Positions 622 to 39,185 of a stretch of DNA of 64,000 nt are shown here, one piece after another (the first letter of the stretch is position 1; each line of letters opens with the position of its first letter). The notes below the pieces were generated by a model that did not search any database, was not told where the DNA came from, and saw nothing but the letters and a program-made list of their open reading frames with translations. This DNA is from a virus (taxonomy: Duplodnaviria; Caudoviricetes): the IMG/VR virus record IMGVR_UViG_3300020045_008916, positions 10,166 to 74,165 of that record, one strand, 5' to 3'. The translations under genes were made by a program, and so were the position numbers.

Positions 622-3600
622 ATGCCATTAGAATATCCAGATATTTTGACAAGAGCTAACGACTCTCTGCCAATAGTAGACAGCGAAGATGTCAAGGGAG
701 CTGACAGGGCTGTAGCTACTCTTGCTGAGATGTATGCACTTTCTTCCCAAATAGGCAAGCTCACACTTAACGTAACAAAAGTTTACGTAACAACTACGGG
801 AGATACCTACTTGCTCAGAGACTTGGCGCAAATCACCAGTTCGGCAGGTTGGGAGCTAATACCTTTCCTAGATGAAGCTCAAGTACAGACTATTGCAGAT
901 GCTGCGTTTCAGGCTGGACTGCCTGAAATAGCTGATATGATTGCAGCAGCTTTGGCACTCGGTGCCGTACCTAGAAAAGTGCCTTCAACAACTTTGGGAG
1001 CACCATCGGAACCTAAACTATATTTTGCCACGCCAGATACTTATAGCCTATACGCAGGGGAAGATATAGAAACAGTAACTGTGGAAGCCCCTTTGACCAT
1101 CTTTTTATGGGATGGCACTACATGGGACTATATAGAAATTCCAATCGAGGTAGACCTTTCTGGGGTGCGCTTAAAATCAGAATTGATTAAGACCAGCGAT
1201 ACTGACTTTTTTGTAAGGGGAAAAAATCTTTTTAATAAAGATAGTCAAGATAATCTTATGGGTTATTTTCTTTTAGATGATGGTACTCAGGTTGCAAACG
1301 GTTCTTTTTTTATAAGCCACGAAATAGATGTAAATCAGAACACACAATACTCATTTTTGAACTTTGATACAGGTGGCGCATACAACGTATACTTGAACGA
1401 AGCTCACGAGGTAATAGGTGGTTTTCAAACAAACCCAACAACCACACCTACAGGTACGAAGTATGTAAAAATGAGCGGTGTTATTTCCAAGCTTGCTACT
1501 CAACAGTTTGAATTAGGAGCCACAAATACAGCTTATGAAGATTATAAGGAGTCTTTAAATCCTTCTAACTTGACAGTTCCTGTAACCAACACTATTGCAA
1601 GAGCAAACACAACTACCGCTGTAACTGGTAATGCTGTTTTACAAGCACTAGCCTACAAGCTGGACAAAACTGTAGGAAAGAACAAGTTCAACCCCAACGA
1701 CCCTGAAATTATAGTTGAAAAGTTTATCCAAGATACAGGAGAGTACATTACCAACTCAGCTTTTAACATAACAGCCCCAATACCTATTGGTACAGGACAA
1801 ACACTGCGGGCAAACTACAGTTCGGGAGGGTTTAGACATGCTCTTTATAATGAAAAAAATCAGATAATATACATATCAGCCAGTGGGGTAAGCTCTTTAA
1901 CACACCAGACGGGGGCTGTATATGCTAGGTTTACCTACAGCGTATCCGAGCCTAACGTACAGATAGAGTTGGGAAGCACAATAACTGGTTATACACCTTA
2001 CGAAGTCTCGATACCTAATCTTAAACTCATAGTACGTAATATTGTAGAGGCTCTTAACAATACGATACCTGTTACAGGCTTTGCCGTTGATAGGTCACTT
2101 GGTGACAAGCTGGACAAAACTGTAGGAAAGAACAAGTTCAACCCCAACGACTCGGGTATAATTGCAAATGCCTATATACAAGACGGGGTGTTATATACAA
2201 ATGCCAATCCTGACTTTCACTTATCAGTTACAGGGTATATCCCTATTTCTTCAGGACAGACTTTAAAGGGGAATTTTTCTCTGGGTGGAGATGTTGACGC
2301 TGCTCTATTTGATGTCAATGGCAACATTATGCCTAGTACTTCTGTAAACAGTAATAGCATTACACACCAGACGGGGGCTGTATATGCTAGGTTTACCTAC
2401 CAGAACACGTTTGTAAATATGCAAATTGAAATAGGTAGTGTGTCTACAGTATACGAGAAGTATACAAGCAGTACTGTAATAGATAAAAAGTTAGATGTGG
2501 TTGTAGGGAAGAACAAGTATAATGTTAACGACCCAGATGTCATCGAAAATGCCTATATAAATGATATTGGCCAGATTGTTACAGGGTTGCCACCAGATTA
2601 CAATATCGATGTTTCTGGTTTTATACCTATCGCAAACGGTCAGACCCTTAAAGCTAATTATGCAAAAGGAAACACATATCAGGCACTTTATGATAATAAT
2701 AAAAACTACATATCTGGGAGTGCTACAGATGAAGTCTCTATAACAGGTACAAGTGCCTCTGCATACGCCCGTTTTTCGACCACGGGTACTAATCCTGTAC
2801 AGATTGAGACAGGAACCATATCTACAGTGTATGCACCTTACACTACATTAGGATTTTTAGAGAGCCTTACACCCTTTGTCCCCGACTATCCGATAGAGAG
2901 TGTGCTGCCAAACAAATTGTATTTTGCCAAAAATAAACCTTTGAGCTTTTACCACGAGAATATAATCTTTAAAGGCATAGATGACCCTACAAAGCCACAC
3001 TTTAGTCTAGGTACCAACTACACCAGACAGACTGTTTTCGGATTTACAGAAGCACAGGGAGAAACAACCTTAAACCTAGAGCTTGCCAGAAACCTTAAAA
3101 AAGTAGAACAAAAAAGTTATAAATTTGAAGTTGTAGATGGTGCCAATAATAGTGGCAAAACAGTGGTATGGCTTGCAGTTGGTGATAGTTTTACAGATAT
3201 TAGAGATTACATTTCAGAACTAAAAAACCAATTGACAGCTGATGGAGCCAATGTTACTTTGATAGGTACAACTGGAACTCAAGCCATTAGAGCAGAAGGG
3301 CTGAGTGGTGGGACTCTGGCTAACACTTTCTTGAATGCGAGTTCTGGTAGTGCTAGACTAGTGACCACCACCGATTTAACACTTAGGCCAGATACGGGAT
3401 TTCCTGGCGCAGAATACAAAGATACTAATAATAATGTATTTTTGGTAAGAGGTACTGGAAATGTAGTGGGAGGAGTTTCTAAGGTTATCGTAACCAGATT
3501 TGGAGCGGTAGATAGTGATTTTGCAACTTTTCCCCCATCAGGAACACTTACAAAAGTGCAGCCAGAAAGAGAGGGACAGGATGTGATTACCTACTCGGGA

Positions 3601-11232: not shown

Positions 11233-11529
11233 TTAACTATTTCCATAATATTGCCTCCTTAGTTTGTCTTTTAATTCGTAAATGATAGTTGCTTCTGGAA
11301 ATTCTGCAAGCAGTTTCTCTCTTCCCACATTATCGTACAGGTGATGTATCCTAGGTTGAACCATCAGTATATTTTCTGGTAAAAGCCTAAAGCTTGGATA
11401 GGCTCCCTTGCCAAGGATGTGAGCAAAATTATTGACATTGAAGGGTATCCACTGTCCTGTAATTTCACAGCACTCGTTCCTCTGTTCGTAGATTTCTTTG
11501 AAGAGCTTTAACTCGCCAGTAGCTGTCAT
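11233..11529 (-). CDS. Small HNH-like nuclease
   Basis: CEITG, FAHILGKG, ENILMV, HHLYD. Confidence 0.5.
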   Translation of the reverse strand: MTATGELKLFKEIYEQRNECCEITGQWIPFNVNNFAHILGKGAYPSFRLLPENILMVQPRIHHLYDNVGREKLLAEFPEATIIYELKDKLRRQYYGNS

Positions 11530-12488
11530 GATAAGTTTTTAAAATACCACTGTCTAACGTAAGGGGCTAATTTTCCCGTAATCTTTTTCCACTCAAGTTT
11601 GCTGCTTACCACAACATCCTCTTCTTCTTTCAAGATGTCTTTCATGACCCACTGGATAAACTCTCCCGTATTTTTAGGTGAAAGCTCTATCCCGTTCGAT
11701 GATAGTACTTCTAGGCCTTGTTTAAGCCTGTTCTCAGTTGCCGCATATTCGATGAACTGTTGAATGTTTTCTAGCTCTTCCGTATCAACTGAAGCTATCT
11801 TTGTAACCTTTGAGCTGGAATGCTTTTCACCTTTAGATTTGAATTTCAAGTTAGGGTCAGAGTCGCAGGTAAAAACAATACCTTCACCAATGCCAGACAC
11901 TCCAAACGCTTTTGCAAACGGACACTCATCTTCTACGGCAATTGTGAGCTCTATCAATTTGTTCTGGATAGCTTCTGGACTGTTAAAATCGATATCTACC
12001 TTCCAAGTAGGGAAATTATCTATATGGTAAATGCCCTGTTCTCTGTCATTAGAGTTAAAATAATCTATCCAAACCCCATCAATCATAGCACCGAAAATAA
12101 CAAAGACTTTAGGAAGCTCATTAAGTGCAACACCTTTTTGGATGTTACCGCCACACCATTCTCCAAATATTGCAATATATTCGTTGAATTGCATACCGCT
12201 GAATAACCAACCCAATTCTTTACCTGACATTGCTGTGGCAAAACCTGCATTGTCGGAGCCGACAGAAAGTACTCTCTCTCTCGATTGAAATTCAATCCTG
12301 TCCTTATACTTCACAACCGCTGCATTAGTGCCGTGCAGCTTGACCCTACCAGTAAAACTAAGTGTTGGGTAGGGTGATGTGTTTCTGTAGATTGGACTAC
12401 CATCAGCATCTTTGCCTTGATAATCATGTTTTGTTCTGACAGCTCTTACTATATTTCTGAACTGTTCAATTGAAGGATATTTTACCAT
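11526..12488 (-). CDS. RNA ligase, Rnl2 family
   Basis: Nucleotidyltransferase motifs KLHGTN, FQSR, FGEWCG, GEGIV and FKSKGEKH. Confidence 0.85.
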   Translation of the reverse strand: MVKYPSIEQFRNIVRAVRTKHDYQGKDADGSPIYRNTSPYPTLSFTGRVKLHGTNAAVVKYKDRIEFQSRERVLSVGSDNAGFATAMSGKELGWLFSGMQFNEYIAIFGEWCGGNIQKGVALNELPKVFVIFGAMIDGVWIDYFNSNDREQGIYHIDNFPTWKVDIDFNSPEAIQNKLIELTIAVEDECPFAKAFGVSGIGEGIVFTCDSDPNLKFKSKGEKHSSSKVTKIASVDTEELENIQQFIEYAATENRLKQGLEVLSSNGIELSPKNTGEFIQWVMKDILKEEEDVVVSSKLEWKKITGKLAPYVRQWYFKNLS

Positions 12489-13497: not shown

Positions 13498-14109
13498 TTA
13501 CTTAACAAAATTAATAAGAAAGTCTAGCAATAGTTGTTTGTAATTTACAGCAGCACCTAAAACAGCAGCAGCAGCATCAGCAGCATAAGCAGCATAAGCA
13601 GCATAAGCAGCATAAGCAGCATAAGCAGCAGCAGCAGCAGCAGCATCAGCAGCATAAGCAGCATAAGCAGCATAAGCAGCAGCAGCAGCAGCAGCATCAG
13701 CAGCATAAGCAGCATAAGCAGCACCAAAAGCAGCAGCAGCATCAGCAGCATAAGCAGCATCAGCAGCAGCCCTTCTTTTTATCCTCAAAAACTCTAAGTC
13801 GACAGTACCATTCAAATAATCTTGTGTCGCTTGTATAGCCTCTCTTGGGGCTTTACTTGGATACTTTTTCTCGTAGATAGGTAATACAATCAATGCAACA
13901 CCAATGGCAAGTAATCTAAACTCTTTATCTTGTAATTGGCAATTGTTTCTTACAAACCAAAACTTATCCTTTAAGGAAATATCTAGATTTAAAATCTGTT
14001 GGATTGACATCTCTTGTGCCTCGCCAATGATAGTTTCAGATTTGCCAGCAGTTTCTTTATAGCAGCCACTACCCGCTAAAATTTCTTTTCTTGAAAATAA
14101 TGTTTTCAT
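13498..14109 (-). CDS. Imm5-like domain protein with Ala/Tyr/Asp low-complexity repeat
   Basis: VLPIYEKKYPSKAPREAIQATQDYLNG followed by an AADAAYAA-type tract. Confidence 0.55.
   Translation of the reverse strand: MKTLFSRKEILAGSGCYKETAGKSETIIGEAQEMSIQQILNLDISLKDKFWFVRNNCQLQDKEFRLLAIGVALIVLPIYEKKYPSKAPREAIQATQDYLNGTVDLEFLRIKRRAAADAAYAADAAAAFGAAYAAYAADAAAAAAAYAAYAAYAADAAAAAAAYAAYAAYAAYAAYAADAAAAVLGAAVNYKQLLLDFLINFVK
13563..13770 (-). repeat. GCA-based tandem repeat encoding (AAY/AAD)n
   Basis: Runs of gcagcataa, gcagcatca and gcagca. Confidence 0.95.
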
Positions 14110-16584: not shown

Positions 16585-19190
16585 CTATCTGTTCTCTTGA
16601 GAAAACATGCCACATTCACCTAAAAACCAGTCTATAATATCATATCTGGGGTCATAGGTCGTATCTTTAACAACTCTTCCGTCTACACTATTAATCCACA
16701 AATCTACATGCAAGCCATAAGGTAGGTGGTTATCCTTATTCTTCCAATAGAATGCAAAAGCATCCCACAAATCTTCTGTTCTAAAAATTGTTTCTGTACC
16801 CTGTGCGGAAGATAATAATACTTGATACTCTGCCGTATCTCCTTCCAAAAATTCCAGTTGTTCCATGATTTTTAAATTTCGTCTATAAATATATCGTTGA
16901 TGTGTTTTAACATACCAACACCGTTTTTAATTTTTTGTTTTACTTTTCTCTTAGCCTCTGTTTTGTTTTTGGCTTTTATCGTCATTACAATCGAGTAAAA
17001 ATCGACATCTACTGTGTAACTTTTCATGGCTCAAGCTCTATTACCCGTACAATGTCCTTGCCAAACCCTAACTCCTTAGCAGTTGCCTCGTCCGCAGTAA
17101 ATTTATCGTGACCATACTCCTCTTTAAATTTAAATAAGACTCCATTTACAGTAGTATGTTTTGAACCTGTTCTTACATCACAGCCTGAAAGGACTCTCTT
17201 ACAAGCCTTACTAACTGCACAATTTCCGTTGCTAATGTAGGAAGTATCTTTAAAGTCGCTTGCAATAAGCACTAATACTTTTGGATTTTTCATGATAAGA
17301 ATAATGAAGTTATATCGGTTTTGTTAATTGGATTTTTGAATATTGTTTGGAAACGTGATTGATGATAGTCGTTAACCTCGTAAAGGTACACACGAAACCC
17401 CAATTTTTCAACAGCTTCTTTGACCTCTTCATTGGTAAAAGCTATTTTAAAACGCTCTATGGTGTTAAAAGCAAACTTATAAGGGTCACAAGCGGCTGCT
17501 CCCAAAGAAGCTACTAATTCCCAATCTGCATGTAGGGGTGGGAACATATTACAATTCGAATGTCTGCCCCTAATAGTCGCTTGCATAGAATGCTGAAATA
17601 TTCTACTGTAGCCGTCATCTCCACGAGAATGCCAAAGGCCTTTACAATCAGAAGGGTGTTCAATCCTGAAAACTTGAATTACACGTTTCATAAGCTTTTA
17701 CTATTAAGGTGCTGTTAACTCTTCGAAAGTGAATAAACCAAGTTCAGTAATACCTCTACTAATCTTAAACTTACCCTTGATAGCTATCCCATCATGGATT
17801 GTTTGAAGTGCTTGCCACTGGTCAATCGTTAGTTTTCCAACTGCTTCAGGTCTGAGAATACCTGCGTTTTCTCGTAAAATATAGTCAGCAGATTTGTCTC
17901 TCAAATACGGGCTAGTGTTTATTTCCTTGGCATTTAAAAGGTTTTTACCAAGGACACACTGTCTACCATCTTTGGTGTCATATCTACAAGAACCACCCTC
18001 ATATCCACATGTTGAAGGGTCTTTATAGTAAGGTCTGATTTGCTCTAAAGCAAACTCTTTTGCTGTTTGATTTTCCATTACGCTCTTTTTGTTAAGATGA
18101 TAGTTCTGATTACATTTTCTCCGTAGCCCGAGTGATAAGCCTTGTCTTTATCATCTCCAAACTCTGTCTCTCCGTAGTAGTCAAAAGCATAGTACACCCT
18201 CTCTGTCTGTGCAAGGTCAGGGTATAGGAATACACTGTCCGTACCTGTATTCGGAAATTGTTGTCCCTCTTGTCTTTTGAGAGCTTTTGATATCGCACAG
18301 TTACCATTGTCTGTGTATCTTGTGTTTACAAAGTCAATGCCTTTTAATTCTAATGTGATTGTGTTTTTCATATCTAAATGTATAAATAAATTTCTTGTTC
18401 CTCTTTGTTTTGTACCCAAGCAAAAGCACGTCCGCTAACCTCAATCCCAAATCCACCGATTGTCCATTTCTCATCCGCATCAATACATACTTTCAAGTTA
18501 CAGACAAAGTATCCCGCCCAACTACCAGATGAGGTGTAAGCAAGTCCCAAACAATTTAAAAGGTTATTCCAAGCACTTCGCCCTGTAAACTTAGGCAAGG
18601 CGCACCGTTTGGGCAGTCTTGCAACGTGGGTGTTATTTTTGAAATAAGTTACGATAGCTTTTTCTAGGTAGTTGAAATCGCTTTCTGAAAATGTTGTTAG
18701 TGCGTTCATATTAAATTCTCCCCGATGATAGTACATTAATGGTAAAAGCTCTTTGGTTTTCTACAAACTCCCCTGTCTTTTGATGAGAAGCCGCCTGTGC
18801 TATAACCTCAATCAAAATCAACTCTCTTTCTAAGTGCCAGTCCTCAGGCAGTTCCGCACACTGTGCAAACGCTACACGTGCCTCGCTCATGTACTCAAAA
18901 TCTTCGTTTAATTCTAAGTGCTTAGCATCGTGCCAAGCTCTGAATAGTATGTTTATATAGGGGTCTCCGAAAATTGTATTATCGCAATGGTCTCCCGATA
19001 TAGGCATGTATCCGTGTTTTTTGGTGGCTTTTTTGAACTCTTCAAAGGACATTTCTTCTCCACACTCTACAGTGAATTTTAAATTATTTGTTCTGTTGAC
19101 AATCCAGTCGTTCAACCTTTGACTGAATGGTGTACTAGCTTTTAACCTTAATAGCTGTTCGATTGAGTACCCGTTTTTGTTGTTTTCCAT
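16585..19190 (-). CDS. Cluster of hypothetical early proteins (16585-16866, 17024-17293, 17290-17691, 17704-18078, 18078-18419, 18374-18736, 18711-19190)
   Basis: Co-oriented abutting ORFs; 17024 and 18078 are paralogues. Confidence 0.6.
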
Positions 19191-19204
19191 TTCGTGATTT
19201 GTTT

Positions 19205-19253
19205 TAGTACTCTGTGTTTTACAGGCTTGTAACCGTCTTTGGCCACATTGCTA
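19205..19253 (-). ncRNA. Twister ribozyme, P1 type
   Basis: UAGC^AA UGU GGC CAAAG ACGG UUACAAGC CUGU AAAAC ACA GAGU ACUA: P2 UGU/ACA, P4 ACGG/CUGU, L4 UUACAAGC, GAGU; P1 is short (3 bp plus C-A). Confidence 0.8.
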
Positions 19254-19287
19254 GGTGCTTTTCAGGTTAAGCACCAAACCGTCTACT

Positions 19288-19432: not shown

Positions 19433-20872
19433 TTAATCTTTGGTTAGGTCTACTTCAACAAGTTCTTTTATTTCCAACGTAATATGGTTAGCATATAGTT
19501 TTCTTTGACCACGCTCCCACAAATCTAAAGCGGTAGCTCTCGGCTGCTCGTTATGTTCATCCACCAAACACGATGTTTGAATGTTACCGTCTTCAACCTC
19601 ACAGTTAGCAAAGTCCAAATTAAATCCAACGTGTTGAAAGTATTTGCCTATTGCATCTTTCCAGTTTTCAGCCTCTACAATTTCATCTAGCGTATAGGCG
19701 TTAACACTTTCTAATTGTTCGCCCTCTAAATAGATGTCTTCATAAACATCGTGCATGGAAGTTATATAAAATCTTTTCATGTTGTTAGTTTTTATGTTTA
19801 GCAAATATTTCAATTATCTTAACATCTCTTCCACTCTTAGCGTAGTGGTTACGTCCATCATTAAATTGTACTACATTTTTATTGTAAAATCTCACACGGC
19901 TTCTGTTGACTAACAAATCCTTAACCAGTGGGTTTTCAAAAATGGAAACTTGTACAGCTTCTTTTCTTTTAGCCCTTAATTTTTTCTTAGTACGAATTTC
20001 ATCTATGTTAATAGTTAGCCTTAATTTTGCTATTTCTGATTTAATTTCACGGCTTAATTTAAACCGCATATCTAGTTTTGGCAGTCGCCCACATAAGACA
20101 AACGCTGTCGATGTTACGGCTTTTATTGCAATTAGCTTTGCTTTCTTATTCATGTTACAAAAGTTTAGGGTTTTTAATTGAGGGGATAAAATCGTTTTCC
20201 ATCCATTCGACGAACAACAACCAGCGTTTAGCTTGGCGTGTTTTATATCTTCTTAGCGTGTTGGTTTTCATATTTATAGGAATTTATGTTTAACTCTCTT
20301 TTTTGCTTCGCTGTAAAACTCCCCATCTTCATCTTCCAAGTCCATCAATACTATTTGCAATCCCTCCCGAGTGCCTCCATTATCAGCCCATTCTAATTGG
20401 TTAGGAGAATAGTCTTTGAAATACTCGTCTTCAACATCACCAACACCTACAGTTAAAAAGCTTAACAACGCTATAGAACTTTCTAAGCTATCCCACGAAT
20501 GAAAAATAGAGGGTTTATAATCAGCCCCTTTAAAAAGCAACTTACCATCTACGTACATTTTATAAGCTACTTTATCACCACAATAGTAAGTGGTTAGGCT
20601 AATACCTAAATCTTTGATTTTAGTAGAGGCTAGTTTTTGCGTAAAATAGTTAGTTTTCATAGCTTTATGGTTTCTAAATCTCCTCTTAAAATCCTACCTA
20701 GATAGGCGGTTTTGCCCTCATCAACTAAAAATAATAATCTACCTATCTGCTTTAAGTCTTTTTTGAAACGTCCGTTTAACAAGCCTTCAAATACGCTTGG
20801 TGCAAGAATGCTTTTATGAGTTTCTACTAAAGCAAGTAATTGCTCGTTTGTTGTTAAGATATACTGTTTCAT
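19433..20872 (-). CDS. Hypothetical early proteins (19433-19813, 19785-20153, 20155-20271, 20274-20660, 20657-20872)
   Basis: Abutting co-oriented ORFs lying between the type III hammerhead and the twister. Confidence 0.6.
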
Positions 20873-20921
20873 TGTTTCGTTATTTTTAACTCATCAGGCT
20901 AGACACACATCTAGCGACAAT
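20871..20921 (-). ncRNA. Hammerhead ribozyme, type III
   Basis: AUUGU C^ GCUAGA(UGUGUG)UCUAGC CUGAUGA GUUA(AAAA)UAAC GAAAC AAU: perfect core and three perfectly paired stems. Confidence 0.93.
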
Positions 20922-21373
20922 TTATTTACCCAAACTCGTTGCCTAGTCTTTGGGGGCTCGCAATACCTGTACACTTTTATCGGTGTTATGGCTCAAATAG
21001 TCCTGTTTATGTGACTAATGCGGATTTGTTTTTGTTTCGGGTTGGAGTATCTCTTAATTCCCTACATTACGTTTTAAAGTTGCTATGTAATATTTAACCT
21101 AATCGCTTTGCGACATTTCACAACGTCCTACTAACTTTCGGGATAAAACCCATATTCAATTGGTAACAACTAATTTGTTTGACTTGACATTTAATAAGCC
21201 ATTGAGTTTATTCTCAATCCACCATTTAGAGGACGTGGAAAACCTGCATCTTTTAAGTCCCTGCAAGACTTTTTAGAAAATGTAACAGTCGTCTATATAG
21301 ACCTCTCTTTTGTATAGACTTATCCTTATTTCATGATTTAGCCACTGTTACATTCTTGTTGGTTACTTTCAAC
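20922..21373 (-). ncRNA. Candidate structured non-coding RNA (about 450 nt)
   Basis: No ATG-initiated ORF longer than 17 aa; 11-bp stem (21344-54/21279-89), many hairpins with GNRA loops, 7-bp long-range pairing (21230-36/21123-29); has its own promoter. Confidence 0.6.
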
Positions 21374-21377
21374 ACTT

Positions 21378-21409
21378 CAAAGGTAAGTATAAGATTTGGT
21401 ATTTGCAAG
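21378..21409 (-). promoter_or_regulatory. Bacteroidota sigma-A-type early promoter
   Basis: CTTG ... TACCTTTG, with the two terminal Gs 28 bp apart. Confidence 0.75.
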
Positions 21410-21584
21410 GGTTATTTTAAAATACTTGTATCATTGCTTTATTTGTGTGCTAGCTTGTAATTTGATAAGTGCTAACCTACTTTAAAGTTTTAGGTTCAAA
21501 GCCTCTTAATCATACTGCAAGCGTAACTTACTAATTGGCGTGTATTGAACACTAATATATTTTAAACTCTATACAAAGAACTAT

Positions 21585-21649
21585 CTTTTGCTTAACTCAT
21601 CAGAATAGGCTCAAAAGCTACCTATTGACGGCTGTTAGACCGTTTCGTT
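21585..21649 (-). ncRNA. Hammerhead ribozyme, type II, with loop I/3'-tail pseudoknot
   Basis: AAC GAAAC GG(UCUAACAG)CCGU C^ AAUAGG(UAGCUUUUGAG)CCUAUU CUGAUGA GUU AAG CAAAAG; CUUUUG pairs with CAAAAG. Confidence 0.88.
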
Positions 21650-21652
21650 TTT

Positions 21653-21862
21653 TTACTTGTTTGCTTTGTGCATTTCTCTTTCGTGTGTTAAAACATCAGC
21701 ACACCACCTTACTTTATTCATTAAGGCAGTAGAGTTACCAAAACCATATTCAAAACTATTACAACCCAAATATATGTCACCTATTACATTTTTTAATTCT
21801 GCTGATAATTTAGCGGCTTTTGCAAACTTTGCATCTAATTGTTTTACTGTAAGTGTTTTCAT
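21653..21862 (-). CDS. Hypothetical early protein (first gene after the promoter at 21917)
   Basis: ORF track; its initiation region is identical to that at 23343-23368. Confidence 0.65.
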   Translation of the reverse strand: MKTLTVKQLDAKFAKAAKLSAELKNVIGDIYLGCNSFEYGFGNSTALMNKVRWCADVLTHEREMHKANK

Positions 21863-21916
21863 AATGCTAATATTTTTAGTTTTAAGGTGATTTCCTGCTT
21901 GTCACTTCCGACATAA

Positions 21917-21955
21917 CAAAGGTGTGAATAATATTTGATATACACAATAGCAAGA
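21917..21955 (-). promoter_or_regulatory. Early promoter (CACCTTTG variant)
   Basis: CACCTTTG at 21924-21917 with CTTG/TTTG upstream. Confidence 0.55.
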
Positions 21956-22702
21956 CAAAAATAAATACAATAAAGTTTAATATAATTTGTAAAGTGCTGA
22001 TAATGAGAGAGATTAATTTTATATAAGATTTAAGATAAAGCGGGATAGCTATAAGGTAGTAGGATATTTTGAGCTAAAAGTTGTTAGCTAACCATATCAC
22101 AGGATTTAAAGGATAAGAGCTAATTAGCTACTACCTATAGGTGAATAACAAAGAGTGACACAATGACACGTATAAGATGACACGATATGATAGTTTGTCA
22201 TGCTATAATAAATTGACAGCTAACAGAATATACCGAGCGGTATAATTAGTGGATGCTAAAATTGTTAGCAAAGGATGGATGTTATCAGCTAACCTACTAA
22301 TTTAAGAGATAAGTAATATATACTATAAGATAGATAACAAGACATAGGAGATATAAGGGTAAACAGGGGAGAGAGCAAGAGAGCGTGTAACGTGTTGCGG
22401 GATATCGTGCGGATTAGGTTGTTATTGTGCCTCAGATAAGCTGAAAGGGTGATTATAGACTAGATGGATAAGTGAGGGAATATTAAAAGCACAATAGTAT
22501 TATACCCTCATCTCACAAACATCTATCTAAATCTCTTTCAAAATACCCTCAAATCAATACTTAGTGTATCAAAGTGCCTCTAATTAGCCTCAAATATCCC
22601 AATTAACAAAGTGCCTTTAAAGCATCGTGAATAAACTATTCCTCTAGGGCAGAGACTTGAATATCAATCACCCCCTTAGTGTATTTAGAACCGATTGGAC
22701 GT

Positions 22703-22735
22703 AAAAAAGCCCTTAACAATTGCTTGCAAGGGCTT
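22703..22735 (-). terminator. Intrinsic terminator of the small-peptide operon
   Basis: AAGCCCTT/AAGGGCTT stem followed by a T-tract on minus. Confidence 0.8.
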
Positions 22736-22758
22736 CAACCATTAATAGCTGTCAATAT

Positions 22759-23350
22759 TCAGCTCATCTGCTTTATCCAATATGCCATCAGCACACACAA
22801 GATAAAGAAAGCTAACATAGCTAAATCAAATTGCTTTGGGTTTCTCGGGTTGCTAGCGTAGTTCATTTCAATAGGGTTATGTAAGCGATTGAATAAACAG
22901 CTAACAAAGCGACAGCTAAGCAGATTAGCACGGGTTTTAAACGTGACAAAGTGGCAGACAAGCCTCTGTACTTGTAGGTTGTGGCTAGAACTTCAAGGGT
23001 AAGTTTTAAATCTTTCATTGTGATTATGTTTAAGGTTAAAGGGGTTTAGTAGCCCCCAAGAAATGTGATTTGAATATCTCCATTAGGTAGTTCGATAGCT
23101 TGGAATGTTACCCCGCTTTCGATGATGCCACTAAGCATCTCGCAAAATGTCTCGTTAGTTACTGTTAGTTGTTTCATAACTATTTGCTGTTAGGTGAGAA
23201 GATAAAGAACACACTTGCAACGATAACGGCTAACAGCCCTGCAACGTAGTAGTTTGCAGGATTAACCGAGCTAACAGCAAATAAAGAGATGAGGCAAGCG
23301 AAAGCTAATGCTAAGAATGCGATTGAGATGATTTGGTGAGTAGTTTTCAT
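22759..23350 (-). CDS. Operon of four small peptides: 23180-23350 (TM), 23046-23177 (43 aa), 22863-23018 (51 aa, TM), 22759-22866 (35 aa, TM)
   Basis: Translated by hand; abutting or ATGA-overlapping; lies between the promoter at 23398 and the terminator at 22703. Confidence 0.65.
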
Positions 23351-23397
23351 AATGCTAATATTTTTAGTAAAAGCCGTAGCGTCATTGCTTGGCACTT

Positions 23398-23429
23398 CAA
23401 AGGTGCAAAATAGTATTGACATATGCAAG
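23398..23429 (-). promoter_or_regulatory. Early promoter
   Basis: CTTGCA ... CACCTTTGAAGTG; same 28-bp spacing and same ACCTTTGAAGTG tail as the promoter at 21378. Confidence 0.7.
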
Positions 23430-23653
23430 TGGCTAGTTGATATAGTGCAGATATTTCACGCTGTTAGTGTCACAATTACGTTACAAAAGAAATCAGCTAG
23501 CAATTTGCCCCATCACAGAGTGAAGCGGAGATATAGCCCAAAGGTATGAGCAACAAGCGATTTAGATAGCGAAGTGGTACAAGGGTACGTTTGCCACATC
23601 CGAAACGTTTGAGGGTAGCACCTTGAGATGAAAGAATTGTTTTGGGATTGAAA

Positions 23654-23715
23654 GAGGGGGGAGGGGTGAAGGAGATTAAAAACCCGAGAGAGGGGGGTGA
23701 TGAAGATGGGATGGG
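23654..23715 (+). other. G-tract cluster (G-quadruplex-capable); candidate genome end or packaging region
   Basis: GGGGGGAGGGG, GGGGGG, GGG, GGG; 29 G vs 3 C in 23641-23700. Confidence 0.4.
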
Positions 23716-23956
23716 ATAGACCCATGAAATCATAGATATAATCCTGAAATCATATTCACGTTATTTCCCCCTAAAATTTTTAAATTTTCTGGCCTAAATT
23801 TTTCGAACTCCTTAGACGTACCCTTAAAAATCCTTTTAAAGATACCCAGCTGAGTAAGCCATCCAGAATAGAAAGATAATTGAAAATGTGATACTACCCT
23901 ACACGAATTTTGGATAAAGAAGCTCTCACCATAGAAGTGGAAATTGTTTATAACGC

Positions 23957-23983
23957 AAAAATCCCCGACTGTTAGGCCGAGGA
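23957..23983 (-). terminator. Intrinsic terminator ending the 24-28 kb minus operon
   Basis: TCCTCG...CGGGGA stem followed by TTTTT. Confidence 0.7.
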
Positions 23984-24392
23984 CTCTTTTAAATTGTTAT
24001 TTCTTTTATAGTTTTTAACTTGTCTGGTTTCTGACTTAAAATCCAATACTCTGCTAAGGCTGCTGTTTCAAAGACTAATACCTCAGACCAGCTGTCAAAC
24101 ATATCGGAATACTCCTGATACTGTCTCCACCAAAATCCCATTACCTTCCTATAAACATGATATTCAACATTTTTTGTAGATACTGGTGGTGTTACCTGTA
24201 CAATTTTAAATTTCATAATTACTTTACTAATACTGCGTAATATCCACTAAACGTAGGTAGATTGCCTCCACCCTCACGTGTTACCTCTAAGCCTAACTCC
24301 CTTAATTTTTCAACTATTTGGTAGAGCTCATGTCTTTTGTTTTCGGCCACTAGGATTTTGACCTCTATTTGATTTTCCATTTTTTGGTGTAA

Positions 24393-24875
24393 TTAATAAT
24401 TTGAGTGTAAATAGTCTAAGAAATAATCTGCTGCGGTATTCTCGTAGTTACTCTCTTTGGTTAATTCTTTTAATCTCTTTTGAAAGTCAAAACAAATATC
24501 ATCACAACCTAAGGTTTCAGGCACATCCCAAACAATAGCTACAAAACGAGAGCCTATTCTATTATGCTGGTACAGTCCGTGAAGCTTATTTCCATCAAAC
24601 CTGATAATATCTCCTGATTGAATAACCATCTCACAGAACTCATGGTTAAAAGATAAACCTCCGTCTGCAACCAGTACGAGCATTACAGTATCCTTGCCTT
24701 TAACAGTACCATCGGTATGTAAGGGTACGTAGCCATCAGATAAAACCAAATCTTCTCCTATTCGCATAATATTGATACTTTCAAGATTAGATAATTTTAC
24801 GTTCCTGTAATACTCTTTCAGCTTTTTTGGGATAACTATATCACGAAATCGCCATTGGTAAACTTTCTTACTCAT
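24393..24875 (-). CDS. 2OG-Fe(II) oxygenase/cupin-like protein
   Basis: VPLHTDG ... GDIIRFDGNKLHG: HxD...H triad pattern in a beta-rich fold. Confidence 0.6.
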   Translation of the reverse strand: MSKKVYQWRFRDIVIPKKLKEYYRNVKLSNLESINIMRIGEDLVLSDGYVPLHTDGTVKGKDTVMLVLVADGGLSFNHEFCEMVIQSGDIIRFDGNKLHGLYQHNRIGSRFVAIVWDVPETLGCDDICFDFQKRLKELTKESNYENTAADYFLDYLHSNY

Positions 24876-35198: not shown

Positions 35199-38100
35199 TT
35201 AGTGGCAACCAGCCCAAGTTTTGTTACAAATCCATTCATGGCCGAGGGCTACATTAAGGTTCATCAGATTTCCTGTTTTCTGAATAGCATTAGCTATGGC
35301 TCTTGAAATATCGTTTGGCATAGTTATATACCACTTTTTACCGTGGGATACTGCACTAAGCTGTTCACCCTTCCATTCCTTAGCAAAAGCATTTGCCTCA
35401 TCTTCTGTTTCAAAAACCTTGAACTCCATAAGCGTGGGATTAACAGCTAGTTGGTTCTCATCGTGGTACTCAATCATGCTACAACAATCTGGCCTACCTA
35501 CAAAAGGGTCGGTACAATATCCTTTTTCTTCAAGCTCTTGCATCAAAAACATGGTTGTATATTTTGCACAGATAACCCCAGCACTCTGGAACAAGGCGTT
35601 AAGAATACTGTGCTGGCTCCTAATGTTTATTTTTCTACCATCGATACTCCTAATGTATTTTTTACCAGTGCTTAACCACTCCTTTTCCATAGCATCCTTA
35701 GCTTCTTTCAAAGCAGGTGCCGCTTCCCAAAAACCATTATACAGTTCTTCGCCTCTTTCTCTCCCCACCACAAACATCTTCATTATTTTAGCTATTTGAG
35801 CACCATACGTTATGGAGTATTTGAAACTTTTAGCATCTGACCTGCTGATACTCAGCACTTTAGCATTTACGGAGTGGATGTCATCGGGCTTTTCTGCAAT
35901 CATAGCTTTTGAATATGCTATTCCATCTGTACCTCTGTAGCAATAGTGGCCTTCTATTCTAGCCTCCAAGCTACTGAAGTCAAAACCACATTGAAGAAAA
36001 CCTACTCCTGCTCCAAACAAACTTCGCATTTCTACCCCATACGTTGATGTTGGTCTAGCCACATTAGCAACACCTATGTGCTTGTACCTGTGTGTGTTGT
36101 GAGTTACAATACCGTTTGAAACATAGCTGTGTGCATTTTCAATAGTAAGGTCATAAGTAGACTCTCTTCCTTTATAAATTAGAGATTTTATTTTTGTAGG
36201 TTTATAGTCTGGCTTGAAAGTATATTCTAAATATTGGTCATTCTCAATGTTCCATCTAATACCTCTACGTATTTGGCTGACAGTTTCTCTACAAACGCCA
36301 TATTTTTCGGCTACTCTTCTATCGTCTCCCTTGTTATATCCTTTTTTAAAATACTCCCTAATCTCTTCTATATCTTTTTGCTTTAGTTTTGTATCGGAAC
36401 CCTGTCTCCTTCGCTTACCAATGCCCCCATGTAATTTTATATCAAATTTATTTTCTTTGGAAGTGCCATATTTCAAATTGCTTAGGAAATTATTAAAAGT
36501 ATTACCATCTAAATGTCTACACTCTAAATCTGACAAGCCTTGAAAAGTTTCAAGAACAGCTCTTCCGATAGATTTTCTTACTTTTGTTCTTCCATCTCCA
36601 ACATAGAAATCAAAGGTTACAGGCCTTCCAGAGTGTTTCTCAGCAACCATCGGACTTAAGTACCTACCACGCTTTGTCCTAATTCTTCCCCAAGAGGATA
36701 CTTCATACTTATCAAAACTGGGATATTCCTTCCAAATTTCTTCCCCTTCATAAGAAAACACCAAATCGTTATCCTGTAATTCTTGGCACGTGACCCAACC
36801 CCTCTCAGTTAAAAATGGATGATTACCCGTGCATCTTAGCGTAGCTAAATTTTCTAGAGTCACTTCCCAAACATCTTTTATACCATTCTCAATTTTATCA
36901 ATCGCTTTTTCGTATTTTCCAGTGTGTGTTAAAACTCTATCTACATTTTCAATCACATCAACAATCCTTTTCAAACCATTGTTTGTAATTATTAACGTAT
37001 CCTCAGTGACACAGGAAGCACCAATTTCTATTGCTGGTGTTGGTACTCGGCCATCCTCCTCGCGATAGTTTTTCAGAAATCCCGTATTTGGCACCTCGGT
37101 ATCCATATCCATCTCCTCAATATCTCCACCTGCTATGGTAGACTTTCTGTGGCGATATGTCAGGTAATCTGCAAAGTCTTTAGCAAAGGCAACTTTCTCT
37201 CCCAAGGCTATCAGATTAGGACAAAGCTCTTTCTCCACTCCAACCCGTACGGCAGGAGATGTTGGCACACGAACAGGTTTTCTATCTCCCAATCGCTTTT
37301 TGATTTTCATATACACCGTATCTTCATCAGCCTTTAGAAATTCCAATCGTTGTGCCTTGTATTTTCCTCCCATTGTGTCAGCGTACCACCTATCTAGGGC
37401 TTTAATCCTTTTGTCCAGTGGAATGGTCTGTTTCTTGCTATCCTTCGTTAAATCCCTCTCCTTCCAATCGCTCGGGTTCCAGCCCAGTTCTATTAAATAC
37501 ATTTTTACAGTATCCAAGTCATCAATCTCCGCTGGTACTTCTGTTTTCAAAGGTTCGGTCAGTGGAAGCGTATAGGTCGTTCCCTCGTATAAAAAGCTTT
37601 CACCATTTAAAGTAGCTCCCAAGTTTTCTGCAAACCTAAGCATACTCTGGGTATAACTCCCATCTTTTTTGACCTGCTGTACAGGGGGAGTATAGAAACT
37701 CTTCTCTGTTTGGGTCAACTTCCTTTTGGGTAGTATCGGATTTACCTTGTTCGCAAGTTCGGTAAGCTTATTGTCCAAGTCAATCAGAAGTCTCAATGCA
37801 AGCGGCTTATCAAAGAAGAAACCCAAAGTCTCCCGCCTGATTGCGATATCCGCTAGTTTATGTTCCTGCTTAATGGCCATTCGCCAGCCATCATATCCTG
37901 CCAGTTCCTGTGTAAGAGCTTTATATGTAGAAGCTGTGGATGAGCAATCCTGGATACAGTAGTCTGTCATTAAATCATTGAACTCCCAAAACTCTGCACC
38001 TTTAGGGTCACTCTTGTCAATATACCCTGCCTCAATGCACTTTTCCCTATAATCTGTCTTGAAATTTCCTGTACGTAAACCCCAAGCCATCAGTCCATGC

Positions 38101-38474
38101 CCTCCCAATCTATCTGGATTTGACATTCTAGAAAGGATAAGCGTATCGAGAAATCGCATTTCCCTTCCAAAACACGTGTCTGATTGTTCCAAATATCCAA
38201 TAGTATATTCAAGAACTCCAAACAATCTTAGAGCAGGTAAATCGAATTTTATACCATTGTGAGCTAGAATATAATCATAGGGCTCCAATGCGGCCTTCAT
38301 CCAGTCTTTTGTGATATCTTCTTTTTCTGCTGAGACATATTCACCAGTAGCATAGTCTCGAACTACCACACACCATAATCTTGCTGTATCTTTTAACTTG
38401 TAAGGAAAACTCCTATGGTCAATCATTTCTTCAAGAAGGTTGTTGGACTCTATATCTATGATACCTATTTTCAT
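35199..38474 (-). CDS. polA: Family A (T7-like) DNA polymerase with 3'-5' exonuclease and an intein
   Basis: IDIESN, HNGIKFD, YCIQD; motif A FDFSSLEAR, motif B RSDAKSFKYSITYGA (Tyr at the 762-equivalent position), motif C YHDENQ. Confidence 0.93.
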   Translation of the reverse strand: MKIGIIDIESNNLLEEMIDHRSFPYKLKDTARLWCVVVRDYATGEYVSAEKEDITKDWMKAALEPYDYILAHNGIKFDLPALRLFGVLEYTIGYLEQSDTCFGREMRFLDTLILSRMSNPDRLGGHGLMAWGLRTGNFKTDYREKCIEAGYIDKSDPKGAEFWEFNDLMTDYCIQDCSSTASTYKALTQELAGYDGWRMAIKQEHKLADIAIRRETLGFFFDKPLALRLLIDLDNKLTELANKVNPILPKRKLTQTEKSFYTPPVQQVKKDGSYTQSMLRFAENLGATLNGESFLYEGTTYTLPLTEPLKTEVPAEIDDLDTVKMYLIELGWNPSDWKERDLTKDSKKQTIPLDKRIKALDRWYADTMGGKYKAQRLEFLKADEDTVYMKIKKRLGDRKPVRVPTSPAVRVGVEKELCPNLIALGEKVAFAKDFADYLTYRHRKSTIAGGDIEEMDMDTEVPNTGFLKNYREEDGRVPTPAIEIGASCVTEDTLIITNNGLKRIVDVIENVDRVLTHTGKYEKAIDKIENGIKDVWEVTLENLATLRCTGNHPFLTERGWVTCQELQDNDLVFSYEGEEIWKEYPSFDKYEVSSWGRIRTKRGRYLSPMVAEKHSGRPVTFDFYVGDGRTKVRKSIGRAVLETFQGLSDLECRHLDGNTFNNFLSNLKYGTSKENKFDIKLHGGIGKRRRQGSDTKLKQKDIEEIREYFKKGYNKGDDRRVAEKYGVCRETVSQIRRGIRWNIENDQYLEYTFKPDYKPTKIKSLIYKGRESTYDLTIENAHSYVSNGIVTHNTHRYKHIGVANVARPTSTYGVEMRSLFGAGVGFLQCGFDFSSLEARIEGHYCYRGTDGIAYSKAMIAEKPDDIHSVNAKVLSISRSDAKSFKYSITYGAQIAKIMKMFVVGRERGEELYNGFWEAAPALKEAKDAMEKEWLSTGKKYIRSIDGRKINIRSQHSILNALFQSAGVICAKYTTMFLMQELEEKGYCTDPFVGRPDCCSMIEYHDENQLAVNPTLMEFKVFETEDEANAFAKEWKGEQLSAVSHGKKWYITMPNDISRAIANAIQKTGNLMNLNVALGHEWICNKTWAGCH
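36096..37013 (-). mobile_element. 306-aa intein carrying a NUMOD4-HNH endonuclease
   Basis: Begins CVTEDT, contains CTGNHPF, ends YVSNGIVTHN with +1 Thr; internal EEIWKEYP..YEVSSWGRIR and CRHLDGNTFNN..SNL.Y.TSKEN. Confidence 0.92.
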
Positions 38475-39185
38475 CTATTTGTCTTTGGTTAGCTGAAGAT
38501 GTAGTGCGCCACCTACTAGTCTTGTTTTTACAATGCTATGCTTAGAAAGTTTAAAGCCAACTTCGAACATATCTTTTAATAAGTCATCAGCTATTACCAA
38601 TGTTAGTTCTTCTTGTTCTTGATTTTGTTTGTACTGTGCATTCAAAGCTACTATTTTTTCATATAGCTCTATATCGTTATCTGTCATCTAAAATCCTCCT
38701 CTTTTAATTAATTTTTCAATCTGACTTTCTGATAGGTATTTAAAGCCTGTACGTGCAGCGTTTACGGTGTTCAAAACTTTGAAGGTGCCATTCTCTAGGA
38801 GAGCCTTAGAAAACTCTTCTGTGGCGATAGCCTTACCCTCTATGTCGTAATCCTCGTGTTCGAAGTAATAGGCTAGCTTATAATTCCCGTTTAATTCAGG
38901 TTGAAGCTCAAAACCTTTTGCCCTTAATTCGGATAATGTGAAATATTCTTTCCCGCCCGAACTCTTAATATATAGTGAAAGCTGCTGCTCATCTAGCGGA
39001 AATTTACCATCCCAGACTTTAACATACTCGCCAATAGCATTTACATTTAATGAGTCTGTTGTTAAATACTTACTTGTTGCATAATTATCTCGGTCTGCTA
39101 TAAATTGAAGGTAAATTTCATCACCATCTGTAACTTGTTCAAAACCTTTTGCTAGTAATTCTTGTTTACTAAATGTGTTCTTCAT
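38475..39185 (-). CDS. Two hypothetical proteins (38475-38687, 38688-39185)
   Basis: Abutting ORFs upstream of polA. Confidence 0.55.

Follow-up and report, generated by a model that had tools for sequence, protein, structure and literature searches.

The locus

The DNA analyzed here, hereafter the window, is a stretch of 64,000 nucleotides (nt) corresponding to bases 10166-74165 of the 74,165-bp IMG/VR virus record IMGVR_UViG_3300020045_008916 (CheckV completeness 96%). Its minus strand carries genes from about 11.5 to 40.8 kb, and within this block a 711-nt piece free of open reading frames (ORFs) lies between two predicted hammerhead ribozyme cleavage sites. An earlier note, made from the sequence alone, had proposed that this piece is a new large phage non-coding RNA (ncRNA). 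The large terminase shares 28% identity with its counterparts in the Cellulophaga phi18:3 group and in Flavobacterium phages, and the Bacteroidota TAnnTTTG box is present in the phage promoters; on these two grounds the phage is taken to be an uncultured one with a host of the Flavobacteria type. No close relative of it was found in the collections searched. The features of the locus, in the order of transcription, are as follows.

21653-21862, minus strand: ORF69 (69 amino acids, aa), upstream neighbour of the 711-nt piece, with its TAA stop codon at 21655-21653
21649..21585, minus strand: type II hammerhead, found by direct reading of the sequence, beginning 3 nt past the ORF69 stop codon; cleavage-site C at 21627
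21626..20916, minus strand: ORF-free piece of 711 nt between the two predicted hammerhead cleavage sites
21409..21584, minus strand: 3' trailer of the upstream transcription unit, from the type II hammerhead to the promoter
21378..21408, minus strand: Bacteroidota-type promoter TTG-N20-TACCTTTG, then AGTGTTGAAAG, identified by shared spacing, a repeat family and a recurring motif
21100..21380, minus strand: central part of the piece, rich in inverted repeats, with a folding energy better than that of shuffled sequences
20923..20869, minus strand: type III hammerhead, found by RF00008 alignment; cleavage-site C at 20916
20863..20873, minus strand: AATGAAACAGT at the start of ORF71, which repeats AATGTAACAGT (21354-21344) in direct orientation with 10 of 11 bases identical
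20657-20872, minus strand: ORF71 (71 aa), downstream neighbour of the 711-nt piece, with its start codon at 20872-20870

Two hammerhead ribozymes bracket the piece

The type II hammerhead consists, in order, of GAAA, the stem III hairpin, GUC (the UH cleavage site), the stem I hairpin, CUGAUGA (21603-21597) and an open stem II. Stem III has 5 bp and a 6-nt loop, stem I has 7 bp and stem II only 3 bp (AAC/GUU), and a 6-bp pseudoknot (CUUUUG/CAAAAG) connects loop I with the 3' tail at 21590-21585, three bases past stem II. A search of 21585-21649 against Rfam gave no hammerhead match at E up to 10, RF02276 included, which is probably explained by the 3-bp stem II and by a pseudoknot that lies outside the model. 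A homologue of the same geometry was found directly after the stop codon of the ORF69 homologue in two phage contigs, L007 and L008. There stem II (CGC/GCG), stem I, the last pair of stem III and the pseudoknot (GGUG/CACC, identified by eye in L007) are changed and all remain paired; these compensatory changes in relatives mark the element as a genuine ribozyme motif.

The RF00008 alignment of the type III hammerhead covers model positions 1-54, the full length, with 36.5 bits and an E value of 1.2e-5 (2.3-kb search), below the Rfam gathering threshold of 48.5 bits, and the element was not listed in the whole-window Rfam searches. The features of the type are present: CUGAUGA, GAAA and a UH cleavage site, with loops closing stems I and II and an open stem III. 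The 5 bp of stem III pair 20875-20871 with 20921-20917 and take in the A and U of the ORF71 AUG. Hammerheads of the same subtype were detected by a pattern scan in three contigs (L002, L003 and L004), to which a metagenome scan added L125/L126. When the window sequence was aligned with the first three, 7 of the 15 stem pairs were found changed on both sides and still paired, and on this evidence from other phage contigs the type III hammerhead also qualifies as a genuine ribozyme motif.

Cuts are predicted after 21627 and 20916 and would release 21626..20916, exactly 711 nt. As a prediction, the precise release by two bracketing hammerheads described in the earlier note is upheld by both motifs and by their compensatory changes in relatives.

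In L003 (3270-3296) and L125 (3986-4012, minus strand) an inverted copy of the hammerhead's own core (TTTTTAACTCATCAG) lies directly after the type III hammerhead and might mask that core by pairing with it; a weaker version in the window pairs 20716-20734 with 20880-20898. A CTGATGA at 38584 was considered as a fourth hammerhead and rejected because it lies inside coding sequence.

An internal promoter divides the piece into two transcription units

The TTG-N20-TACCTTTG element spans 31 nt, the same span as at five other intergenic sites on the coding strand of the window. It belongs to a promoter-like repeat family (D1) with four copies in 20600-24400, the internal promoter included, three of which are at promoter sites of 31-nt span. 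The extended box TAnnTTTGnAGTGTTGAAAG recurs ahead of phage early genes and ahead of Bacteroidota tRNA genes (loci outside the window: L009-L124 and L203-L322). A scan of viral contigs with TTTGnAGTGTTGAAAG gave about 35 sites with TA two bases upstream, most of them followed by a short leader and then an ATG, and a scan of bacterial genomes with the extended box gave more than 120 sites, mostly in Bacteroidota and several immediately ahead of tRNA genes. The TAnnTTTGnAGTGTTGAAAG box thus looks like a strong-promoter or transcript-start element, and the assignment of 21378..21408 as a consensus promoter of the host type is well supported by these motif comparisons.

The transcript start is placed at about 21372-21368, and the resulting transcript would be about 455 nt long with its 3' end at the type III hammerhead. 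With promoters of this type the leader before the ATG usually measures about 25-60 nt. Since the promoter lies in the middle of the piece, the 711 nt span two transcription units: about 175 nt of trailer come first, followed by the promoter and by some 455 nt of leader. The second transcript entry of about 455 nt that had been suggested at this position is supported by the spacing shared with five sites and by the recurrence of the motif in Bacteroidota.

Two small early ORFs are preceded by identical 26-nt leaders (21855-21880 and 23343-23368) that extend into their start codons; each leader lies downstream of a copy of the internal promoter's type.

The piece is non-coding and has no detectable relative

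The longest ATG-led frame on the sense strand of the 711-nt piece has 11 codons, none of genetic code tables 11, 4 and TAG=Q opens a long frame, and stop codons occur at 0.085 per codon compared to 0.079 expected from base composition. A hidden gene is ruled out by the lack of a frame under the three codes and by this random rate of stops, in agreement with the earlier description of the piece as ORF-free. A decayed paralogue was also ruled out, the best per-query E value in tblastn of all window ORFs against the region being 6e-4 among several hundred queries. A tRNA/tmRNA search of the region found none, and a terminator scan of the trailer (21409..21584) found no terminator on the minus strand. 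An antisense RNA was rejected since the plus strand of the region is without a Bacteroidota-type promoter.

The body of the piece gave no match at E up to 10 to Rfam 15, which includes the RAGATH, GOLLD and ROOL models, and the whole-window Rfam searches matched no family to it either, consistent with its not having been recognised as any known class. By blastn no relative was found among the 50,697 phage records of INPHARED. The 200 phage loci that were fetched hold no homologue of the body: it is absent next to the three ORF69 homologues and absent at 76 other type III and two other type II loci (L007/L008 and L161), and blastn against the 900 nt upstream of those 76 type III hammerheads returned nothing. 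Comparison with the spacers of L002-L008 and with two other non-coding stretches of the window (blastn, nhmmer and shuffled local alignment) gave z at most 0.25. Searches of IMG/VR with ORF71, ORF69 and the large terminase as single queries, and of metagenome and viral contigs with an ORF69 alignment, yielded no relative of the body. ORF71 matched nothing but itself in 5.8 billion protein clusters, and ORF69 has three homologues in a representative-library search.

Folding of the piece

All nine pairings listed in the earlier note are present on the minus strand. The most conspicuous is a perfect 11-bp inverted repeat (21354-21344 with 21289-21279), which was reached in 5 of 200 shuffles. It lies in the central part, which also holds the ACGUCCU/AGGACGU and AUUGAG/CUCAAU pairings and a 12-nt palindrome, GTCTATATAGAC, at 21302-21291. 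The palindrome occurs once in the window and was for this reason ruled out as a repeated operator. The number of short hairpins in the piece (25, against 18 +/- 5.4) was reached in 24 of 200 shuffles and is not unusual.

The folding energy of the whole piece, computed on 20914-21624 (2 nt off the exact piece) against 20 shuffles, gave z -0.53 for the sense strand and z -2.43 for the antisense strand. The central 281 nt (21380..21100) gave z -2.26 on the sense strand, where 4 of 200 shuffles were as good, and z -4.56 on the antisense strand. Sense-strand values in sliding 160-nt windows were between -1.5 and +1.4, while the trailer (21410-21626, including part of the type II hammerhead) gave z -0.26 and the 3' 195 nt z +0.17. 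A structured RNA would be expected to fold better on its sense strand than both its shuffles and its antisense strand, and this was observed neither for the whole piece nor for the central part.

An RNA fold selected on the sense strand is usually weaker on the antisense strand, where G-U pairs become A-C. Since here the antisense strand folds better than the sense strand, the central folding signal points to plain inverted repeats in the DNA and not to a sense-selected RNA fold. The structured domain of about 450 nt that had been proposed is not supported by these results: against shuffles only the central 281 nt stand out, and there the antisense strand folds even better.

Ribozymes and leaders in other phages

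Hammerheads of the same type III subtype lie directly ahead of ORFs in L002, L003, L004 and L125. A further 76 IMG/VR loci (L127-L202) carry type III hammerheads with stem III UUGUC/ACAA; in nearly all of them the next ATG-led frame begins 8-28 nt past the ribozyme, and the stretch upstream without an ORF of at least 50 aa is often 225-780 nt long. One phage cluster accounts for 42 of the 76, and in 31 aligned loci of the largest cluster pairwise identity was about 0.80 in the ribozyme and about 0.55 in the leader, the latter alignment being gap-rich. The start codon falls inside stem III in this phage and in only 3 of the 76 other loci.

The type II hammerhead shows a comparable association. 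In a third contig with an ORF69 homologue (L006) a terminator hairpin is found where L007 and L008 carry the type II hammerhead, and the spacer that follows this hammerhead in L007 is unrelated in sequence to the 711-nt body and not unusually stable (fold z -1.13). Judged by these positions, the ribozymes seem to go with the genes next to them and not with the intervening piece; the recurring unit would be a ribozyme at a gene boundary and not a pair of ribozymes around an RNA.

The L007 contig, which carries an ORF69 homologue, also contains a Pistol ribozyme at 2977-3044 (plus strand; 56.5 bits, above threshold) and, at 2463-2500 (plus strand), a second, partial type II hammerhead without CUGAUGA just ahead of the next ORF.

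A proposed transcribed spacer processed for the flanking genes

We consider the 711 nt to be a transcribed spacer and not a dedicated RNA gene, made up of the ORF69 trailer (about 175 nt after the ribozyme), the early promoter and the leader of about 455 nt of the ORF71 operon, with a probability of roughly 0.5. This reading is preferred because the ribozymes travel with genes, the leaders of other phages are poorly conserved, the body has no relative, the piece as a whole folds like shuffled sequence and a promoter lies mid-piece. It builds on four observations: covarying ribozyme motifs, a promoter motif, the absence of any reading frame and the failure to find conservation. As part of this reading the two hammerheads most likely serve the flanking mRNAs.

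Read-through from the promoter at 21947 would be cut by the type II hammerhead 25 nt past the ORF69 stop codon, the ribozyme taking the place where neighbouring units, and one ORF69 homologue, have a terminator hairpin. Transcripts from 21408..21378 would be cut by the type III hammerhead 43 nt ahead of the ORF71 AUG, which would remove the long leader and leave a 5'-OH mRNA for ORF71. After this cut the 5-bp stem III would join two separate molecules and could dissociate, exposing the ORF71 start codon. The excised 711-nt and 455-nt RNAs would be by-products, and the body possibly a relic of a duplication or insertion. Cleavage in vivo, the ends of the transcripts, an effect on translation or stability and a functionless body are all inferred. 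Clustered hammerheads flanking prophage genes have already been described, and the present pattern matches the role in processing long transcripts that was proposed for them (PMC3088659; PMC6765202).

A twister-like motif (RF03160) occurs at 19204-19254 on the minus strand, with 34.2 bits and an E value of 3.7e-5, below the gathering score of 67.2. It lies about 1.7 kb downstream in the same operon, ends about 13 nt ahead of the ATG of the next-but-three gene (ORF 18711-19190) and is the third self-cleaving motif within 2.4 kb of one operon; its location ahead of a gene start would fit the same logic of processing at gene boundaries.

Several observations weigh against a spacer without function. 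A strong promoter, of a type also found ahead of tRNA genes, drives 455 nt without a frame, which is costly if useless. On the sense strand 196 of 200 shuffles fold less well than the central 281 nt, and the 11-bp stem starts about 17 nt past the presumed start of transcription, a placement also seen in stable RNAs. In the clusters described so far the hammerheads have genes between them, whereas here they enclose a piece free of genes. Finally, the non-conservation of the body rests on distant comparisons only, because ORF71 has no homologue and ORF69 only three, so that the phage is nearly an orphan.

Alternative explanations

The same observations can be read as signs that the leader is a real ncRNA, a primary transcript of about 455 nt made from the early promoter and given its 3' end by the type III hammerhead. 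The role of a decoy, scaffold or regulator would then fall to roughly the first 280 nt of this RNA, which contain the 11-bp stem and the long-range ACGUCCU/AGGACGU pairing. The promoter of consensus strength, the lack of a reading frame, the central z of -2.26, the rarity of the 11-bp stem in shuffles (5 of 200) and a precise, ribozyme-made 3' end are what such an RNA would have. Against these stand the better folding of the antisense strand, the unstructured 3' 195 nt, the lack of an Rfam family and the absence of conservation in the analogous leaders of other phages, while covariation cannot be shown for a body with no homologue. We hold this explanation, for the leader and for the proposed role of its 5' part alike, to be possible though unlikely. 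The wider claim of the earlier note, a new class of large phage ncRNA, is not supported, as no homologue was found in which conservation or covariation could be shown, though such a structured RNA class is still conceivable.

A particular form of the same idea, that one hammerhead cut both finishes an abundant regulatory RNA of about 455 nt and frees the start codon of the next gene, has in our estimate a small probability. If it were true, long gene-free leaders ending in start-proximal hammerheads, which are seen at about 80 uncultured phage loci, could be a general and undescribed route by which phages make RNA.

Alternatively, the body could be the relic of an insertion or duplication. The promoter would once have driven ORF71 through a short leader, until about 480 bp with a hammerhead at the 3' end came to lie between them, and the ribozyme would now remove the extra RNA. 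This origin is compatible with the spacer interpretation, and we rate it as rather improbable. Over its first 36 nt the leader is similar to a stretch made up of the type III hammerhead's 3' half and the ORF71 start: 27 of 34 bases agree, with one 2-nt gap, and the AATGAAACAGT/AATGTAACAGT copy is part of this similarity. The score of 34 is matched by none of 2000 shuffles, and 39 generic leaders from promoters of the same type reach only 11-28. In addition, the leader has ATG-TAA where ORF71 has ATG-AAA, about 25-60 nt is the normal leader length for this promoter type, and the spacer of L007 likewise has a complete type II hammerhead on one side and a partial copy of it on the other. These similarities suggest, short of proof, that an insertion or duplication of some 480 bp came to separate the promoter from ORF71. 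On the other hand, the resemblance is partly generic to the promoter family and about 4 of 2557 minus-strand windows score as well (overlaps with the query excluded); moreover, no gene remnant or paralogue was seen in the body and no known mobile element was recognised.

The inverted repeats may instead act in the DNA, as operators for a regulator of the early promoter or as part of a transcription-primed origin together with the repeat-rich stretch 21863-22862. The complementarity is symmetric with respect to strand, the antisense strand giving the stronger signal; a perfect 12-nt palindrome is accompanied by a third half-site, an 11-mer occurs in three copies, and the adjoining 1 kb has repeated motifs and a reversed base skew. 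The palindrome, however, occurs only once in the window, no regulator gene was identified nearby and the cumulative skew has no extreme at this place, and we regard a role at the DNA level as quite unlikely.

The stretch 21863-22862, of about 1 kb, has no ORF of at least 45 aa and contains AAAGTGCC and GTTAGCT repeats; its GC and AT skews are reversed compared to the genes around it on the minus strand. A regulatory role is possible for this stretch, as is that of a replication origin.

Ends made by hammerheads can be joined by an RtcB-type ligase, or by an Rnl2-like ligase after end healing. Circularisation of the 711-nt piece, with its 5'-OH and 2',3'-cyclic phosphate, by a host RtcB-type or the phage Rnl2-like ligase is highly improbable: two hammerheads yield suitable ends and the phage encodes an RNA ligase at 11526-12488 (minus strand; Pfam PF09414 1e-10, PHROG 548 1e-60; about 9 kb downstream, at the far end of the minus-strand block), but no predicted pairing brings the ends together, the joined ends, unlike those of viroids and retrozymes, rebuild no hammerhead (the junction is without GAAA and the stem III 3' strand), no end-healing kinase or phosphatase was recognised near the ligase, and with the internal promoter most transcripts would start inside the piece.

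Elsewhere in the window, the DNA polymerase (1091 aa, 35199-38474, minus strand) has matches to an HNH endonuclease and to an intein-like element inserted at about residues 481-788. An Rfam match to isrG at 13512-13778 (minus strand; 44.9 bits against a gathering score of 100) lies inside ORF 13498-14109 and is probably spurious.

Relation to known systems and significance

Among the closest known systems are the hammerhead clusters of prophages and phages reported by Perreault et al. 2011 (PMC3088659), in which differing hammerhead types also lie close together in one phage transcript and for which the cutting of long transcripts into gene-length mRNAs was proposed. The type II hammerhead of the window shares the type II design described there, in which stem II is short and loop I forms a pseudoknot with the 3' tail. 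The described pairs differ in that they flank genes or small blocks, whereas here a gene-free piece with a promoter is flanked and a twister-like motif follows downstream. By motif and geometry both hammerheads are new examples of known ribozyme types.

RAGATH RNAs (Weinberg et al. 2017, PMC5737381) are likewise non-coding stretches beside hammerhead or twister ribozymes in phage-like DNA. They are defined by conservation and covariation in many sequences, whereas the body here matches no RAGATH model and has no known relative. Retrozymes and viroid-like circular RNAs (PMC4918200, PMC7761336) share with the piece the lack of a frame, a length of 600-1000 nt, release by two hammerheads and ligatable ends. 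In those elements, however, identical type III (or type I) ribozymes stand in direct repeats and are rebuilt in the circle, while the present pair combines two types, each linked to the gene beside it, and no ribozyme would be restored by circle formation; the piece does not qualify as a retrozyme or viroid-like circular RNA. The 76 type III loci of IMG/VR have the same core and stem III, an ATG within 28 nt and a long, poorly conserved gene-free stretch upstream, and differ in that these upstream sequences are unrelated to the 711-nt body and that the AUG lies in stem III in only 3.

The role of bacterial and phage hammerheads is still open (PMC6765202). With a type II hammerhead at a terminator position, a type III hammerhead holding a start codon and a twister-like motif in the same operon, the locus offers a compact test case. 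The intervening piece is, on the evidence presented, more likely a by-product, so that the locus is of value for its ribozymes and not for a new RNA class. Were the excised leader stable and functional, ribozymes would act as makers of the 3' ends of phage ncRNAs.

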